A DNA stretch of 64,000 bases from the IMG/VR virus record IMGVR_UViG_3300026488_000011, positions 32,001-96,000 of that record; one strand, written 5' to 3'. Below are positions 8,648-33,415 of this stretch, piece by piece; position 1 is the first letter of the stretch, and every line of letters starts with the position of its first letter. A model generated the notes under the pieces. It saw only the letters and a program-made list of their open reading frames with translations, was not told the DNA's origin and did no database searches. Origin of the DNA: a virus. A program made the position numbers and the translations under genes.

Positions 8648-8679
8648 TATCCACATGAGTCGTATGACTCATGTGGATA
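8648..8679. terminator. bidirectional terminator hairpin
   Basis: 14-bp perfect stem TATCCACATGAGTC/GACTCATGTGGATA between convergent genes. Confidence 0.8.
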
Positions 8680-9241
8680 CCATATTCTCTATTATATAAT
8701 TAGCTAACAGTTTTACTTCTTCATTTGTCTTGGTTAAATTTCCTCTGTGATTATTAATATTAATATCTGGTTTAATCTTATCTACATCATATCTTATTCC
8801 ATTTGCGCCGCATGTGCTAATATCTGAGTTTACTTTTACTATTAGCGATTTGAGTGTTCCATCTTTTAGCACATGATACTCAGGTATAAATCTTAAATCC
8901 GGTATTACAACTACGTCGACATCTCTTTTTAGAGACTCTTCTACTAAAATTCTAGCAAAGATGTCTTGACCTAATTTACTCCTTAGACCTTCAGCATATC
9001 TTATTATGGCTTCTCTGGTGGTGATTATCTCTGCCCCAAAACCCACTAGTACATTATCGTTTTTCATCTTTTCTAAAACGATAGGATCAACTCTAAAAGA
9101 TTTAGCAACCATTTCCTTTAATGGTCTAGCTAATGAATCATAGTAGACTTTATAACCTGCATTCCTTAGATGTTTGGTTAACATGGTAGCTACGGTGTCT
9201 TTACCACAACGATCGTAACCTGTAAATGCTATAAATATCAT
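8669..9241 (-). CDS. deoxynucleoside monophosphate kinase (T4 gp1-like)
   Basis: P-loop FTGYDRCGKDT, then LARPLK, R-x-x-I-x-x-Y-A-E-x-x-R and IPDLRF motifs typical of phage dNMP kinases. Confidence 0.85.
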   Translation of the reverse strand: MIFIAFTGYDRCGKDTVATMLTKHLRNAGYKVYYDSLARPLKEMVAKSFRVDPIVLEKMKNDNVLVGFGAEIITTREAIIRYAEGLRSKLGQDIFARILVEESLKRDVDVVVIPDLRFIPEYHVLKDGTLKSLIVKVNSDISTCGANGIRYDVDKIKPDININNHRGNLTKTNEEVKLLANYIIENMVST

Positions 9242-10396: not shown

Positions 10397-10738
10397 TTAG
10401 ATACTTGGTAATCTACTGCGATATGAGGAATATCTAAAATTCTTATTATTCAGCGTCTCGATAGCAGAAAACATAAATCTGTTAAACTTATCACATTTCT
10501 TAAATCTTAATAGATAAGGAAACTTATCCTTTATCTTTTTTCGTTCTTGCCTGGAATTAATATTACTCTCTACCTCATCCATAGCACTTAATTCTTCTTG
10601 GGTTAGATATTTCTTTAAAGATTCTCGTCCCCATACTTTAGCACGTGTTAGGACTCTAAGATTCTTATCCAGTAATCTAATTGTATAAATATCAGTATCA
10701 TTGTTTTTAGTAACTAGTTTAAAAGCTGTTTTAAACAT
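10397..10738 (-). CDS. hypothetical basic protein
   Basis: 113 aa with AAGGAGG RBS. Confidence 0.7.
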   Translation of the reverse strand: MFKTAFKLVTKNNDTDIYTIRLLDKNLRVLTRAKVWGRESLKKYLTQEELSAMDEVESNINSRQERKKIKDKFPYLLRFKKCDKFNRFMFSAIETLNNKNFRYSSYRSRLPSI

Positions 10739-11134
10739 TTATTCCTCCTTAAATCCATTTAAGATATAACAGATAGCTCTGGCTTGATTAATAGGCGTTA
10801 CACCAAACATATCTGTAATGGTTTTATCTTTTGCCTTTTCTTTTATTTCTTCTAGCAACTCTGGTTTCTCTTTAAAATACTCTACCCATAGTTCTACGTA
10901 TTCTTTAAATAACTCTTGTTCGGACTTATTATTTAGAGGGGGTTTGTCTTTAGCTTCTTTCCAGTGGCTAACTTTACCTCTATAACCTTTTATATCTAAC
11001 TGATAAATCTCTTCAATGGACCTACCGTGATATCTTGTTAGACGAGCATAAAGAGCTGAATATCGTTTATCCCCTTTACTACTGCATTCGTAATAGGGTT
11101 CTCCTCTCTTAACTCTCCTAGCCCATCTGTAAAT
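10739..11134 (-). CDS. NADAR-like (putative ADP-ribosylhydrolase) domain with no canonical start; reached by -1 frameshift from the DNA polymerase or by an ATT start
   Basis: Hand-translated 131-codon frame: IYRWARRVKRGEPYYECSSKGDKRYSALYARLTRYHGRSIEEIYQLDIKGY...YVELWVEYFKEKPELLEEI...ITDMFGVTPINQARAICYIL. It fills the gap between flanking genes exactly. Motif order parallels NADAR (FSNF / EH-x-x-Q-x-x-K / KF-x-x-x-P-x-L / D-x-x-WG / N-x-LG). Confidence 0.7.
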   Translation of the reverse strand: MYRWARRVKRGEPYYECSSKGDKRYSALYARLTRYHGRSIEEIYQLDIKGYRGKVSHWKEAKDKPPLNNKSEQELFKEYVELWVEYFKEKPELLEEIKEKAKDKTITDMFGVTPINQARAICYILNGFKEE

Positions 11135-13302
11135 TACTTTTTTTCTTCTACTCCATTGTCAATTAGATCTATAACTTTTAATCCAGGTTTAATGTAATAC
11201 CCTAATGAGTTTAGGATCATGTATAAGACATTACAGTTATCTTTTACAACTTTGTCTATATCTATTACTGACATAATCTCTTCTGGGAATCCTTTGTTAT
11301 ATAGGTTTACTAATGGAAACTTAAATGTCTTTATTTCTGACTTGTTGTATTTTTTAAGGAACTCTTCAAATCTCTGCTTAAGCTCATTGTCTTTTATAGA
11401 GTCCAAGAAGTTTTTCATATCTGTTTTATTATTAATAGTCGTAGGAATTTTAAGAGCCATATATGTAGGCTCAGGAGCATGACCGTACTTAGGTGCAAAC
11501 ACTTCTTCCCATAGCAAGTATTGTAGATATGGTGTTTTAGAAATATCTGGTTCTTTATACGCATTAGCTTCTTTAATTTTCTCTAACTTCAATACTTCCG
11601 GAGAACCTTCTTGTATTTTAGTAATTATATGTTTCTCCATGTCTGCTACTTTCTTCACATATTTACGTAGTGATATTTTCTTGTTACTACCTACCTCACT
11701 CATAATCTCCATCATCATTTCGTCTGCTAACTTCCTTACTGGTCCATACGCAAATGATGCAATAAGATGTACTCCTTTCTTTTCTAAATCAGGTTCTTTA
11801 AACACGTTACCTTCCTGTATTCTCACGTTAGCGTAATAGTGTTTAGATACATCTGTATTTACAAATACATCCCAGAAAAACTCATTCTTCATTTCTAAGT
11901 TTTTAGCAGCGTCATAATCTAAGTTCATATTGGCTCCTAGGAGCTTAATATAGTGGTCGATTGCCTGCGTCGTAAATGTCATAATTGCTGCCGTAATGGA
12001 TACCGCGTCTTTATTAAATACCATCTGACCATCATTATACCACTCTACCCAGTTTTGATATGTAGCACAGGTAGAATCCGTATCTGATAGCACGATTACT
12101 TCTCTTAGCATATCTTTTATATATGCGATCGAAATTGGAAACACTTTAGTAACAAAAAATGTTTTTATCAAGTCTTCTTTTTCCTGGAACGACTGCATTA
12201 GTCTGTTAGCGGTAGAAGCTAATATCTCTACCGTGTCATCGTCTAACGCGTCTTCTCCATCTAAGACATATTTTCTTCCTCTCATTAAGTCAGATTCTAC
12301 ATGTAGTAGTAAGTTAGTAATCCAGCTAGGTATCGATTTTAGATAGTCTCTAGGATTATCTACTTTGATCGGTTTATACTTAATTATATCGTCTAACCAA
12401 CCCTTCATGAATTCAGGATTTAACTCCCGTAATTGGAATAGATCATTTACGTATGCAATAGCTGCTAATTCGAATCCCGATAGTGATTTCAGAAATTTAT
12501 ATATCTCTCTTTCCTTTTCTGTATGCTTCCAGTACGGTCTTGTATTTTTCTTAATTACATTTTCCATCACATAGTCAGGTGTAGGAATAGTAAGTCTATA
12601 CTTCCTTATTATTTCTTCTATCTTATCTACGTCTACTGAGGCTAATATAGCGGTAAGATGATTTAATGTTACTTCAGGGTTTCTATAGTGTCTATTACCG
12701 GATATCATTGATTCAGAGATGGCATTTCCTATACCAGCTACACATCTGGTAATTGAAGTAAGCGTATAATGTGCTGATGGATTATATAACACCGTACCGG
12801 CACTAGCATAAGCTCCTGATAGAGAGTTGTTTTTAATCTTCATGGATTTTTGCAATGTATTGTGGTAATTATGTTTTTCTATATCTCCATCCATTTTGTA
12901 TTTAAAAGCTAGTTTTTTATGTTTAGATCTTAAAGCAATGTTATCGCTAATAAATTCTGCATGTAGAGATTTTTTCTTTTTAGGATTAAAGTAAACTGTA
13001 AATGATGGTACTATTATATCTCCTTGTTGTTTAACATAGTTGATATAACCGATTAGTGTAGTGATTTGATTATTTAGAATCTTACCATCCAATGTTCTTT
13101 CTCTAAACTTAACTCTAGGGTTTTTTATTTTACCTTGTTCTTTAAACTCTTGCAATTTCTTTTTTACTAGTTTTTTAGATTCTGGAAATGGTATATCTTT
13201 TTTCTTAGTTATATAAATAGCTGCTTGTTCTATGTAATCACTTATTGGATCCATATGTGGTTTATAATCTTCAGGTCTTAGCTTAAATATATCTGACATC
13301 AT
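11134..13302 (-). CDS. family-B DNA polymerase, catalytic subunit of the split phiKZ-type polymerase (gp82-like)
   Basis: Motif B-like MKIKNNSLSGA, motif C-like LSDTDST, then KHYYA and LEKKGVHL; 722 aa with no exonuclease domain. Confidence 0.9.
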   Translation of the reverse strand: MMSDIFKLRPEDYKPHMDPISDYIEQAAIYITKKKDIPFPESKKLVKKKLQEFKEQGKIKNPRVKFRERTLDGKILNNQITTLIGYINYVKQQGDIIVPSFTVYFNPKKKKSLHAEFISDNIALRSKHKKLAFKYKMDGDIEKHNYHNTLQKSMKIKNNSLSGAYASAGTVLYNPSAHYTLTSITRCVAGIGNAISESMISGNRHYRNPEVTLNHLTAILASVDVDKIEEIIRKYRLTIPTPDYVMENVIKKNTRPYWKHTEKEREIYKFLKSLSGFELAAIAYVNDLFQLRELNPEFMKGWLDDIIKYKPIKVDNPRDYLKSIPSWITNLLLHVESDLMRGRKYVLDGEDALDDDTVEILASTANRLMQSFQEKEDLIKTFFVTKVFPISIAYIKDMLREVIVLSDTDSTCATYQNWVEWYNDGQMVFNKDAVSITAAIMTFTTQAIDHYIKLLGANMNLDYDAAKNLEMKNEFFWDVFVNTDVSKHYYANVRIQEGNVFKEPDLEKKGVHLIASFAYGPVRKLADEMMMEIMSEVGSNKKISLRKYVKKVADMEKHIITKIQEGSPEVLKLEKIKEANAYKEPDISKTPYLQYLLWEEVFAPKYGHAPEPTYMALKIPTTINNKTDMKNFLDSIKDNELKQRFEEFLKKYNKSEIKTFKFPLVNLYNKGFPEEIMSVIDIDKVVKDNCNVLYMILNSLGYYIKPGLKVIDLIDNGVEEKK

Positions 13303-14606: not shown

Positions 14607-14638
14607 ACATCACAGTAGGAAATATCCTACTGTGATGT
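14607..14638 (-). terminator. terminator hairpin
   Basis: 14-bp stem ACATCACAGTAGGA/TCCTACTGTGATGT overlapping the stop of the MazG-like gene. Confidence 0.75.
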
Positions 14639-15196
14639 TAAGTTTCGTTCTAATATTTCTCTTTCTTTCTTAAGATCTCTTTGTAAAGCATCTACTTGTG
14701 TAAATTTATTAGGATATCTGGCAGAGAGCTTTTCTATGTTAGAAATCATTAACAGTTCTATGCTATTATCATATGTGGCGTCTCTGATAAAGTAACATAA
14801 GTCTAATAGATCTTTCTTTAACGCATCTATGTCAAACTCTTTTCCGTAGAACAGAGTCTTTTTAGAGTTATCAAAACTGTTTACTAGTATTGTATCGAAT
14901 TCTATGGATTTTATTAGATCGGTATTAAATATTTCTTCTATTTCGTTTATAAAATTGTTATCGTTTAATTCATCAGCAATTATAGCTAGATACCATAACA
15001 TATCTCCTACTTCTTCCAGAGCATTTACATTATCGTTATTTTTAATAGCTTCTCTGAATTCATCTTTTTCTGTAATTATTCCTTGTATACCATGGAATAA
15101 TCTAGCTGTTAAGCCTCTTTCCTCTACTTCCTTTTTAAAAGGATTTAAACTGCTTTCAGTTCTTATTGCTAACGGAATATATTCCTTAAACTTCAT
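14627..15196 (-). CDS. mazG: MazG-like nucleoside triphosphate pyrophosphohydrolase
   Basis: G-I-x-T-E-x-x-E...EEVGDMLWYLA...NIEKLSARYP: all-alpha NTP-PPase motifs. Confidence 0.85.
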   Translation of the reverse strand: MKFKEYIPLAIRTESSLNPFKKEVEERGLTARLFHGIQGIITEKDEFREAIKNNDNVNALEEVGDMLWYLAIIADELNDNNFINEIEEIFNTDLIKSIEFDTILVNSFDNSKKTLFYGKEFDIDALKKDLLDLCYFIRDATYDNSIELLMISNIEKLSARYPNKFTQVDALQRDLKKEREILERNLTSQ

Positions 15197-31958: not shown

Positions 31959-33415
31959 TTAAACCATTTTTCGTATTCCTTTTTAGGCTTTTTAGTTTTC
32001 TCATCCATCCAGTATGGAGTATAAAGACCTTTTCTCATTTTTAATAAATCCACTGTACTTAGAAACGGTGGTACGTCGGGACTATATTGTTTAATTGTCC
32101 ACCAGCCTCTAGTCTTAAGCAACATATTCCAATCATATCCAAGTTTTTCCAAATCTTCTCTCAGTTCTTTAGGACTACATAATAACCCTTGAGTTTTCAT
32201 AACAGGTTGAAATGTGTGTAATTGTAATAATTCAGAAGTAATATTTACAGCTCTTCTTAATTTTTCATCTTGTTCTAACTTATTTCTCACAGTAGTCCTA
32301 CTCAACTTCACATCTGGATAGAGTTCTAACCAATAGCTTCTTACTGATCCATCTAGTCCAAACTTATTAGTTTTAATATAATGGAATTCTGTTAAGCTAG
32401 GTAGTACGCCTTCTGTCTGGCTAACTACTATTGGAAGAGTATATCCCGATGGACCGGACTTGCTCCTTACTTGTAATAAGTTTACTACATTCAGATCAGT
32501 CTCAATATCGTCTTCACCCCTAGGATATTCTGGTTGTTTTGTAGACTGATTAATTAAGGCAGACGGACTAAATGTTTTCCAGTAATGAGTAGTTAAGAAC
32601 ATTACTTTATCAGTAGCACCTTTAATCTTTTCGTCTTGCTTCATAAACTGTAGATCTTTTGTAGGTTTAGCAAATGGATTACCAGACATATCTATCTTTT
32701 TACCTAAATGTGTACTGAAAAGAAAATAGATATTTGCTCTGTTAGATAATCCTGGCATGTCCTTCAACACCTTTGTTTTATATAATCCCTGTTTCATAAA
32801 TAAGGTGTTTGTTTTATCTTCTTCAAGATTTTCTAACATGTCTATTGTAGTTTCTGATTCAAACTCTGTTAGAGAATCTATTTCTACAAACGATGGATAC
32901 GGTAACTTTAAAGGTTCCTTTTTAAGGTTATCTAGAAAAGCTTCATATACTACCTCAACATCCTTATCTTCTTCTTTTTCCTTTACCATAGGATAAAGCT
33001 CTTCTTTTAACCATTTATTGGCCGGTAATTCTGATTTAGTCCTGATCACCCACTGACCTGTCATAATTGGATCCCTATCCAAATATTTTGTATGTTTATT
33101 CACTAAGTTATTATAACGGTCAGGATTTAATAACATATTGTCTTCTGTATCGTAAGTCTCCATCATAATTAATTCTGGATAACTAGCAGCCATTCTATCA
33201 GCTGCTGTGTACATCATATGGTGCATTAAGGTAGATTTAAACGTATTACCTAACCCAGCAAATCCTTCAATACTACTTAGTCCTCCATTTATAATAGATT
33301 CACCTTTAGCTCCTGTTACTATTGCTCCTGTAGGTATATCCAGTAAAGCACCTACATTTATTAACGGTCTTAATCTTAAGTTATTCGGTTTTCTTATTAA
33401 TTTTTTCTTAGCCAT
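31952..33415 (-). CDS. uvsX: RecA/UvsX-like recombinase (phiKZ gp152-like)
   Basis: LRPLINVGALLDIPTG, Walker A GLGNTFKST, Walker B VEIDSL, RSKSGPSG. Confidence 0.85.
   Translation of the reverse strand: MAKKKLIRKPNNLRLRPLINVGALLDIPTGAIVTGAKGESIINGGLSSIEGFAGLGNTFKSTLMHHMMYTAADRMAASYPELIMMETYDTEDNMLLNPDRYNNLVNKHTKYLDRDPIMTGQWVIRTKSELPANKWLKEELYPMVKEKEEDKDVEVVYEAFLDNLKKEPLKLPYPSFVEIDSLTEFESETTIDMLENLEEDKTNTLFMKQGLYKTKVLKDMPGLSNRANIYFLFSTHLGKKIDMSGNPFAKPTKDLQFMKQDEKIKGATDKVMFLTTHYWKTFSPSALINQSTKQPEYPRGEDDIETDLNVVNLLQVRSKSGPSGYTLPIVVSQTEGVLPSLTEFHYIKTNKFGLDGSVRSYWLELYPDVKLSRTTVRNKLEQDEKLRRAVNITSELLQLHTFQPVMKTQGLLCSPKELREDLEKLGYDWNMLLKTRGWWTIKQYSPDVPPFLSTVDLLKMRKGLYTPYWMDEKTKKPKKEYEKWFND

Follow-up and report, generated by a model that had tools for sequence, protein, structure and literature searches.

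The window analysed here was a stretch of 64,000 nucleotides (nt) from the IMG/VR virus record IMGVR_UViG_3300026488_000011 (positions 32,001 to 96,000 of that record). The element under study was the 3' end of its minus-strand gene for the DNA polymerase subunit DNAP-C, together with a start-less open reading frame (ORF) that follows in the -1 frame and encodes a domain of predicted NADAR fold. The data point to a programmed -1 ribosomal frameshift at the heptamer A_AAA_AAG, which forms the last two sense codons of DNAP-C. The probability of this reading was put at about 0.78. The frameshift had been proposed in a sequence-only reading of the window and was supported by heptamer conservation, control genes, selection on the ORF and in-frame fusions in relatives. 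That the shift takes place, in whatever fraction of ribosomes, is inferred from these comparisons.

The DNAP-C gene (11134..13302, minus strand; phiKZ gp50 type) encodes 722 amino acids and ends GAA GAA AAA AAG TAA, with the TAA (11136..11134) directly after the heptamer. The heptamer (11137..11143, minus strand) lies in the X_XXY_YYZ phase of the polymerase frame. Reading in the -1 frame from this site gives K K V I Y R W and continues for 132 codons after the shift to a TAA at 10741..10739 (P0001; 10739..11137, minus strand). ATG, GTG and TTG are all missing from this frame until a late internal Met, and the ORF listing reports none there. The frame is closed on its 5' side by a TGA (11161..11159) within the polymerase gene, seven codons ahead of the heptamer. 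A Shine-Dalgarno-like GGAG (11151..11154, minus strand), a possible upstream stimulator, is spaced 7 nt from the heptamer. The heptamer before the stop, the open and start-less -1 frame with its upstream TGA, and the GGAG had all been described beforehand and were confirmed when sequence and phase were re-read.

An ATT (Ile) codon (11132..11134, minus strand) overlaps the polymerase stop as TAATT and occupies the start-Met position of stand-alone homologues. The GGAG lies 16 nt from it, and no Shine-Dalgarno sequence at initiation spacing was found upstream of it. The next gene (10397..10738, minus strand; 113 amino acids, no family match) has AGGAGG 5 nt before its ATG. The phage thus uses strong ordinary ribosome-binding sites, and the -1 ORF has none.

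Under the proposed mechanism, most ribosomes would stop at the TAA and release the 722-residue DNAP-C. A fraction would slip by -1, both Lys tRNAs pairing anew with AAA AAA, and would then read GTA ATT TAC. The fusion would comprise approximately 854 amino acids, with the junction ...EEKK-VIYRW... and the 132-residue NADAR-fold domain at its C-terminus. The shift would be helped by slow decoding of the adjoining stop and perhaps also by the GGAG that lies 7 nt ahead of the heptamer. X_XXA_AAG is the most shift-prone heptamer class in E. coli. Tethering would place the domain at the replication fork, where it might clear ADP-ribose lesions as the sequence-only reading had proposed, and might also bring it into the phage nucleus.

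The arrangement exceeds chance expectation. A_AAA_AAG occurred in frame 17 times in approximately 57,400 codons of the genome (3e-4 per codon). An XXXYYYZ heptamer stood directly before the stop in 3 of 179 ORFs, and the -1 frames behind the other two ran for only 14 and 29 codons. When in-frame X_XXA_AAG heptamers were scanned in ORFs of at least 80 amino acids, a long -1 ORF followed just one of 36, the site at the polymerase end, where the -1 run was 134 codons against 31 for the next best.

The 722-residue protein matched Pfam PF20286 (divDNApol, 'divergent family B DNA polymerase') at E 3e-186 and phrog_2927 at E 1e-188. In phiKZ the replicative family-B polymerase is split into two subunits, DNAP-N (gp82), which bears the exonuclease and the catalytic Asp, and DNAP-C (gp50), which is the PF20286 protein (bioRxiv 10.64898/2026.09.30.755723). 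The source record is a 185,491-bp IMG/VR virus with terminal repeats and 33% G+C. Its genome also encodes a DNAP-N homologue with 34% identity to gp82 (165694-167370, outside the window) and a phiKZ-type major capsid protein (E 2e-118). The window polymerase is at most 33% identical to that of any isolate, and no match was found when nucleotide similarity to known phages was sought. On these sequence matches the gene is classed as a DNAP-C orthologue and its source as a distant, AT-rich phiKZ-type jumbo phage.

Two relatives carry the same layout on DNAP-C. L031, a separate 186-kb IMG/VR genome with a domain 82% identical to that of the window, reads GCT GAA AAA AAG TAA TTT and shares the heptamer, the TAA stop and the ATT. 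L010, the closest relative (domain 83% identical), keeps the heptamer and stop but has TAATG. The polymerase tails ahead of the heptamer vary in length and sequence among the three. A close relative with TAATG had been named beforehand as evidence that would count against a frameshift. L010 is such a relative, but it does not discriminate, since it also keeps the heptamer; its TAATG shows only that free protein may also be made there.

The ratio of nonsynonymous to synonymous substitution rates (dN/dS) in the domain was 0.089 between the window and L031, where the proportion of synonymous differences (pS) was 0.63 and synonymous sites were near saturation. It was 0.047 between L069 and L087 and 0.08 between the phages HPP-Temi and PS119XW. 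Across the compared pairs dN/dS ranged from 0.04 to 0.09 and pS from 0.63 to 0.79. Such low ratios despite near-saturated synonymous sites argue that the start-less ORF is translated and constrained, and on these comparisons it is under strong purifying selection.

These results bear on an explanation by misassembly or by recent damage to the gene, either an ATG changed to ATT or an in-frame fusion that lost an A, with the ORF no longer expressed. The record is a metagenome-assembled virus, and a run of eight A's would yield a plain in-frame fusion. Against this, A7, TAA and ATT recur in the independent L031, and A7 and TAA in L010, and the recurrence of TAATT with the heptamer in L031 means that the ATT is not an assembly or sequencing slip. 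The dN/dS values indicate long-term constraint, and the same layout is present in dozens of phiKZ-type isolate genomes. An artefact or recent lesion was accordingly considered extremely improbable.

The family was surveyed at 80 loci with the domain, which were found by an alignment-based scan of viral and metagenome contigs; single-sequence scans of such contigs yielded only five loci. Approximately 20 junctions were examined in which the domain lies in the -1 frame behind DNAP-N or DNAP-C, in isolates and IMG/VR contigs. In every one the -1 frame opened precisely at an X_XXA_AAG heptamer of the polymerase frame, placed 0 to >30 codons before the polymerase stop. Conservation of heptamer and -1 phase in related genomes, which had been suggested as a check, was thus found in L010, in L031 and behind DNAP-N in approximately 17 further lineages. 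In the Pseudomonas phiKZ-type phages the domain is placed behind DNAP-N, the other subunit. The gp82 gene of phiKZ ends AAC CCA AAG TAA, and its -1 frame gives P K V I Y Q W before continuing through the domain, of which only a 38-residue fragment is annotated in phiKZ; the stretch is unannotated in two other phiKZ-group records.

The heptamers fell into a few forms. C_CCA_AAG was found at the stop or one codon before it in phiKZ, PhiPA3, PS119XW, HPP-Temi, Phabio, 201phi2-1, Viktualia, L062, L069 and L087. G_GGA_AAG was found at the polymerase stop in L056. A_AAA_AAG was found at the polymerase stop in the window, L010 and L031, and 8 to >30 codons before it in Noxifer, L082, L102, L058 and L090/L093. 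The base before CCA was always C in six Pseudomonas-phage junctions, and the residue encoded there varied (N, P, L, S, S, A).

The form C_CCA_AAG or G_GGA_AAG also bears on transcriptional slippage, in which RNA polymerase would add one A to the A7 run and give an in-frame mRNA with no ribosomal shift. The window does have an A7 run at the site, where one added A would produce the in-frame fusion, and insertion sequence (IS) elements and Thermus dnaX exploit such slippage on runs of A or T. Efficient slippage, on the other hand, usually needs runs of about nine or more, and the CCCAAAG and GGGAAAG sites of the relatives hold only three A's, so that a single family-wide mechanism must be ribosomal. 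Slippage was judged highly unlikely.

In 201phi2-1 and Viktualia (L005, L003, ~2470-2510) the heptamer region looks duplicated, with a perfect CCCAAAG followed 7 nt later by a degenerate CCCAAGT. As a result, four extra codons separate the shift site from the domain, and a GTG is present that serves as a start in the annotation. In HPP-Temi (L016 601-1935) the annotation breaks DNAP-N into pieces around a gene for an HNH endonuclease, a sign that the polymerase gene may hold an intron or intein-like insertion.

The survey also bears on the alternative that no frameshift takes place and that only a free 131-residue protein is made, by coupled re-initiation on the AUU that overlaps the TAA. This ATT aligns with the start Met of both stand-alone and N-terminally fused homologues, TAATG occupies the same spot in L010 and PhiPA3, and AUU is a rare but known bacterial start (infC, IS911 orfB). 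The absence of a Shine-Dalgarno sequence at initiation spacing, with the GGAG 16 nt away, speaks against such a start. Across phiKZ-type relatives the codon at the 'start' position is ATA, ACA, ACT, GTA, GTT or ATG, where the window and L031 have ATT. ACA, ACT, GTA and GTT are unusable starts, and as a set these codons fit a hydrophobic or small internal residue, unlike a selected start codon. In Noxifer, L082, L102, L058 and L090 the polymerase stops 8 to >30 codons past the opening of the start-less domain frame; coupling is impossible there because the stop is distant and a start is lacking. Re-initiation would also leave unaccounted for a heptamer of top efficiency that stands in phase in every -1 polymerase layout and in none of the other layouts. 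An exclusively free product was therefore regarded as unlikely, although weak AUU re-initiation may occur in the window alongside frameshifting. The sequence-only reading had offered a coupled ATT start or a sequencing error as its alternative; the comparative data, including the recurrence of TAATT with the heptamer in L031, favour the frameshift.

Control loci followed the same division. All loci in the survey without a canonical start belonged to the class with a heptamer behind a polymerase. Where the domain lies in the -1 frame behind a non-polymerase gene, ATG was present in 14 of 14 loci and X_XXA_AAG in 0 of 14. No heptamer was found at the end of DNAP-N genes without a downstream domain (this genome, Xoo-sp14, SPN3US, RP12, EL, pVa-21), whose terminal sequences are unrelated; the DNAP-N of this genome has neither heptamer nor domain downstream. 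A Pro-Lys or Lys-Lys end as a feature of the polymerase itself was considered and rejected, since DNAP-N genes without a downstream domain lack such an end.

In-frame fusions, another suggested check, were found among relatives for both subunits. P0039 (839 amino acids, in two assemblies) is DNAP-C with the domain at its C-terminus, and P0105 (698 amino acids, beside a phiKZ-type capsid gene) is DNAP-N with the domain at its C-terminus. These natural C-terminal fusions are what a -1 shift would make, so products of that kind are viable. The order is reversed relative to the window in a sister clade (P0005, P0006, P0009, P0012, P0015, P0018 and locus L008), in which the domain forms the N-terminal part of in-frame fusions with DNAP-C, proteins of 851-867 amino acids that begin M-Y-K-W. 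The locus of this N-terminal fusion is L008 / L012 3001-5604 (IMGVR_UViG_3300026518_000014). Among the sequences compared, the domain is linked to the split polymerase in every possible arrangement.

Several points weigh against the frameshift. The ATT stands exactly at the Met of stand-alone homologues, and the TAATG of L010 and PhiPA3 is a classic coupled start, so that a free protein is plausible in both. In Psa21, RVTF4, L075, L100 and L109 the domain lies in the +1 frame behind DNAP-N, starts with GTG or TTG and is not accompanied by a heptamer; because of these five lineages, covalent fusion is not obligatory for function. The genome tolerates 16 other in-frame A_AAA_AAG heptamers, so that on its own this sequence may cause little shifting in the host. 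A Shine-Dalgarno-like tetramer at 7 nt was present in 7 of 19 junctions and missing from 9 other lineages, and its distance from the heptamer falls short of the 10 nt in dnaX. The region of L010 equivalent to the RNA structure predicted downstream of the window heptamer had a z score of only -1.4, the window/L010 consensus reached just -9 kcal/mol, and no consensus RNA structure was found downstream of the heptamer in the Pseudomonas-phage set.

The structure predicted in the window (11040..11128, minus strand) starts 8 nt after the heptamer and had a minimum free energy of -27.5 kcal/mol (z -2.5; matched by 4 of 200 shuffles); it is a weak candidate stimulator. Besides the GGAG of the window, the tetramers at 7-nt spacing were GGGG in L010, AAGG in L031, PS119XW and HPP-Temi, and GAGG in 201phi2-1 and Viktualia, a pattern no more than suggestive of an upstream stimulator. 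Slow termination at a stop codon next to a heptamer could promote slippage, and the adjacent stop may act as a stimulator here.

A different structure was seen in the alignment of PhiPA3, PS119XW, HPP-Temi and others (columns 57-79), where a 7-bp hairpin, CGGAGGA / TCCTCCG, could form approximately 22 nt past the heptamer. Its arms would be the Gly-Gly and Ser-Ser codons that flank the Y-E-C motif, and the Ser codons covary with the upstream arm in Phabio (CGACG / CGTCG) and 201phi2-1 (GATGG / TCATC). This hairpin lies beyond the classical stimulator distance and is missing from the window.

The domain itself (P0001) matched phrog_9995, a family of unassigned function, at E 5e-43. An AlphaFold2 model built from 24 homologues had a pLDDT (predicted local distance difference test) of 96.7. 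Exhaustive structural comparison of this model gave the DarG1-type NADAR 8bat (Z 8.2; 125 residues aligned, root-mean-square deviation 3.5), the Phytophthora NADAR with ADP-ribose 8bau (Z 7.4) and E. coli YbiA 2b3w (Z 7.1), with the next chain at Z 3.7. The top Foldseek hit was also 8bat, weakly (probability 0.82, E 0.44). The invariant residues of the domain are E17, G22, D23, R25, S27, E42, Y45, Q46, K63, D109, Q118 and A119. Published work on NADARs (PMC11543638, PMC11825919, PMC11125620) describes an E-x6-K motif, its Lys seven residues after the Glu, together with a last-strand residue that is Glu, Asp or His. E17, K24/R25 and D109, the last of which stands where the final strand (106-108) ends, vary little or not at all and appear to fit this pattern by their positions in the sequence.

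Sequence searches did not reach the NADAR families. No Pfam NADAR match was obtained for P0001 or 24 family members, and neither PF08719 nor PF22397 hit anything in the genome with E values of up to 10 allowed. One homologue scored 25.8 bits against PF22397, for which the cut-off is 27. A domain profile search of PDB sequences and an hhalign comparison of the domain with T4 AdfN also returned nothing, and a BFVD fold search gave strong matches only to uncharacterised family members. The earlier label 'NADAR-like' thus held for the predicted fold and not for the sequence. The domain is of NADAR fold by prediction and probably related to NADARs, rather than a demonstrated member.

The NADARs (DarG1 8bat, Phytophthora 8bau, YbiA 2b3w, and T4 AdfN/gp30.3) are the only clear fold matches of the domain. 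The domain has an invariant Glu, a Lys/Arg seven to eight residues on and an invariant Asp that ends the last strand, which may correspond to the E-x6-K and the last-strand Glu, Asp or His of NADARs, and homologues of the domain are fused to Macro, NUDIX, SLOG and DUF4326. The domain differs in its size of approximately 125 residues, against 150-220 for NADARs, and in its lack of a Pfam NADAR match. Its fold, motifs and domain partners suggest that it may remove ADP-ribose from DNA bases and so counter DarT-type toxins; an activity of NADAR type would counter DarT1-like toxins. We know of no described NADAR that is tethered to a polymerase. The chimallivirus AdfM is a nuclear macrodomain anti-DarTG2 factor, with DNA de-ADP-ribosylation inside the phage nucleus, and shows that DarT-type damage matters to such phages, which are known to require protection of this kind in that compartment (PMC13309987). 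The enzyme differs in its macro fold, in being a free protein and in its thymine-ADP-ribose substrate, whereas the window domain is NADAR-like and would be attached to the polymerase.

The phrog_9995 family comprised 604 representative clusters, in which the domain occurs as free proteins of approximately 130 amino acids, as parts of giant proteins of 2,000-6,000 amino acids, or in fusions. Fusion partners of its homologues were SLOG/YAcAr, DprA, Macro, NUDIX, DUF4326 and DUF7831. The domain is common in the giant proteins (P0052-P0054, P0060-P0062, P0078, P0090, P0091, P0103, P0110 and others), which are similar to the 'polyvalent' multi-domain proteins that phages and conjugative elements encode. 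In one metagenome series (L011 2282-3016; P0003, P0007, P0008, P0017) it forms the C-terminal half of proteins of approximately 240 amino acids, whose N-terminal 110 residues gave no family match.

The proposed device can be set beside three known ones. E. coli dnaX (tau/gamma) likewise has A_AAA_AAG in a replicase subunit gene, with an upstream Shine-Dalgarno-like element and two replisome forms per gene. The dnaX shift truncates the protein to gamma and is accompanied by a strong downstream hairpin, whereas the shift in the window would add a whole enzyme-like domain, at a heptamer that abuts the stop and without a conserved hairpin. In lambda G/GT (G_GGA_AAG) and its equivalents in tailed phages, X_XXA_AAG also lies near the end of the upstream gene, ahead of an ORF without a start. 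That layout is likewise kept across distant phages despite sequence divergence, and the shift fixes the ratio of short to long product. The lambda-type products are tail chaperones, unlike the polymerase subunit and NADAR-fold domain here, and the domain of the window type also occurs in relatives free, in the +1 frame or fused in frame at either end. IS911 and IS3-family orfAB share A_AAA_AAG and a nearby upstream Shine-Dalgarno-like element. In these elements AUU can start the downstream frame alone, and fusion and free product may coexist. They differ in having a defined downstream stimulatory structure and a transposase product, where the window has a replisome component.

Full-text literature searches found no published description of a frameshift in phiKZ, chimallivirus or jumbo-phage polymerase genes, or of PHIKZ082.1, in agreement with the earlier remark that no described fusion of this kind was known to its author. 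No annotation of a polymerase-domain frameshift was found in the phiKZ-type GenBank records inspected. A structural preprint on the phiKZ polymerase makes no mention of a frameshift product (bioRxiv 10.64898/2026.09.30.755723). New here, on the sequences compared, is the same domain and recoding device on DNAP-C, in a distant AT-rich clade, along with the sister lineages that carry the domain in frame at the DNAP-C N-terminus and the controlled survey of the whole family. Its occurrence with the proposed mechanism on this second subunit, in so remote a clade, argues for attachment to the polymerase as the trait under selection.

If confirmed, this would to our knowledge be the first case in which a frameshift equips a subunit of a replicative polymerase with a domain of catalytic type. 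In the phiKZ-type jumbo phages, a model group under intensive study, the replicative polymerase would then exist in two forms set by recoding, of which the longer bears a probable DNA-repair or anti-defence enzyme. Replication would be tied directly to counter-defence against DNA ADP-ribosylation, and a gene product absent from the inspected phiKZ-type GenBank records would come to light. A more far-reaching and doubtful reading, offered tentatively, joins these points. The domain would be an active DNA de-ADP-ribosylase on the replicative polymerase, so that a set fraction of replisomes would erase DarT1-type guanine-ADP-ribose lesions from the template just ahead of synthesis. The fusion would serve as an entry ticket to the protein-walled phage nucleus, and selection for tethering itself would lie behind the movement of the domain between subunits and between fusion modes (N-terminal, C-terminal, -1 frame).

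No phage-encoded tRNAs were found in the genome, and five other ORFs near the polymerase gene had no PHROG family match. The neighbours of the DNAP-C gene that did match (window 8669-9241 and 14627-15196, minus strand) were a deoxynucleoside monophosphate kinase (phrog_139) and a MazG-like pyrophosphatase (phrog_229). The DNAP-N of this genome (G000 165694-167420) has E-L-E-V-A-V as its last residues, and behind its gene lies a perfect hairpin, a GC-rich inverted repeat that resembles a terminator.

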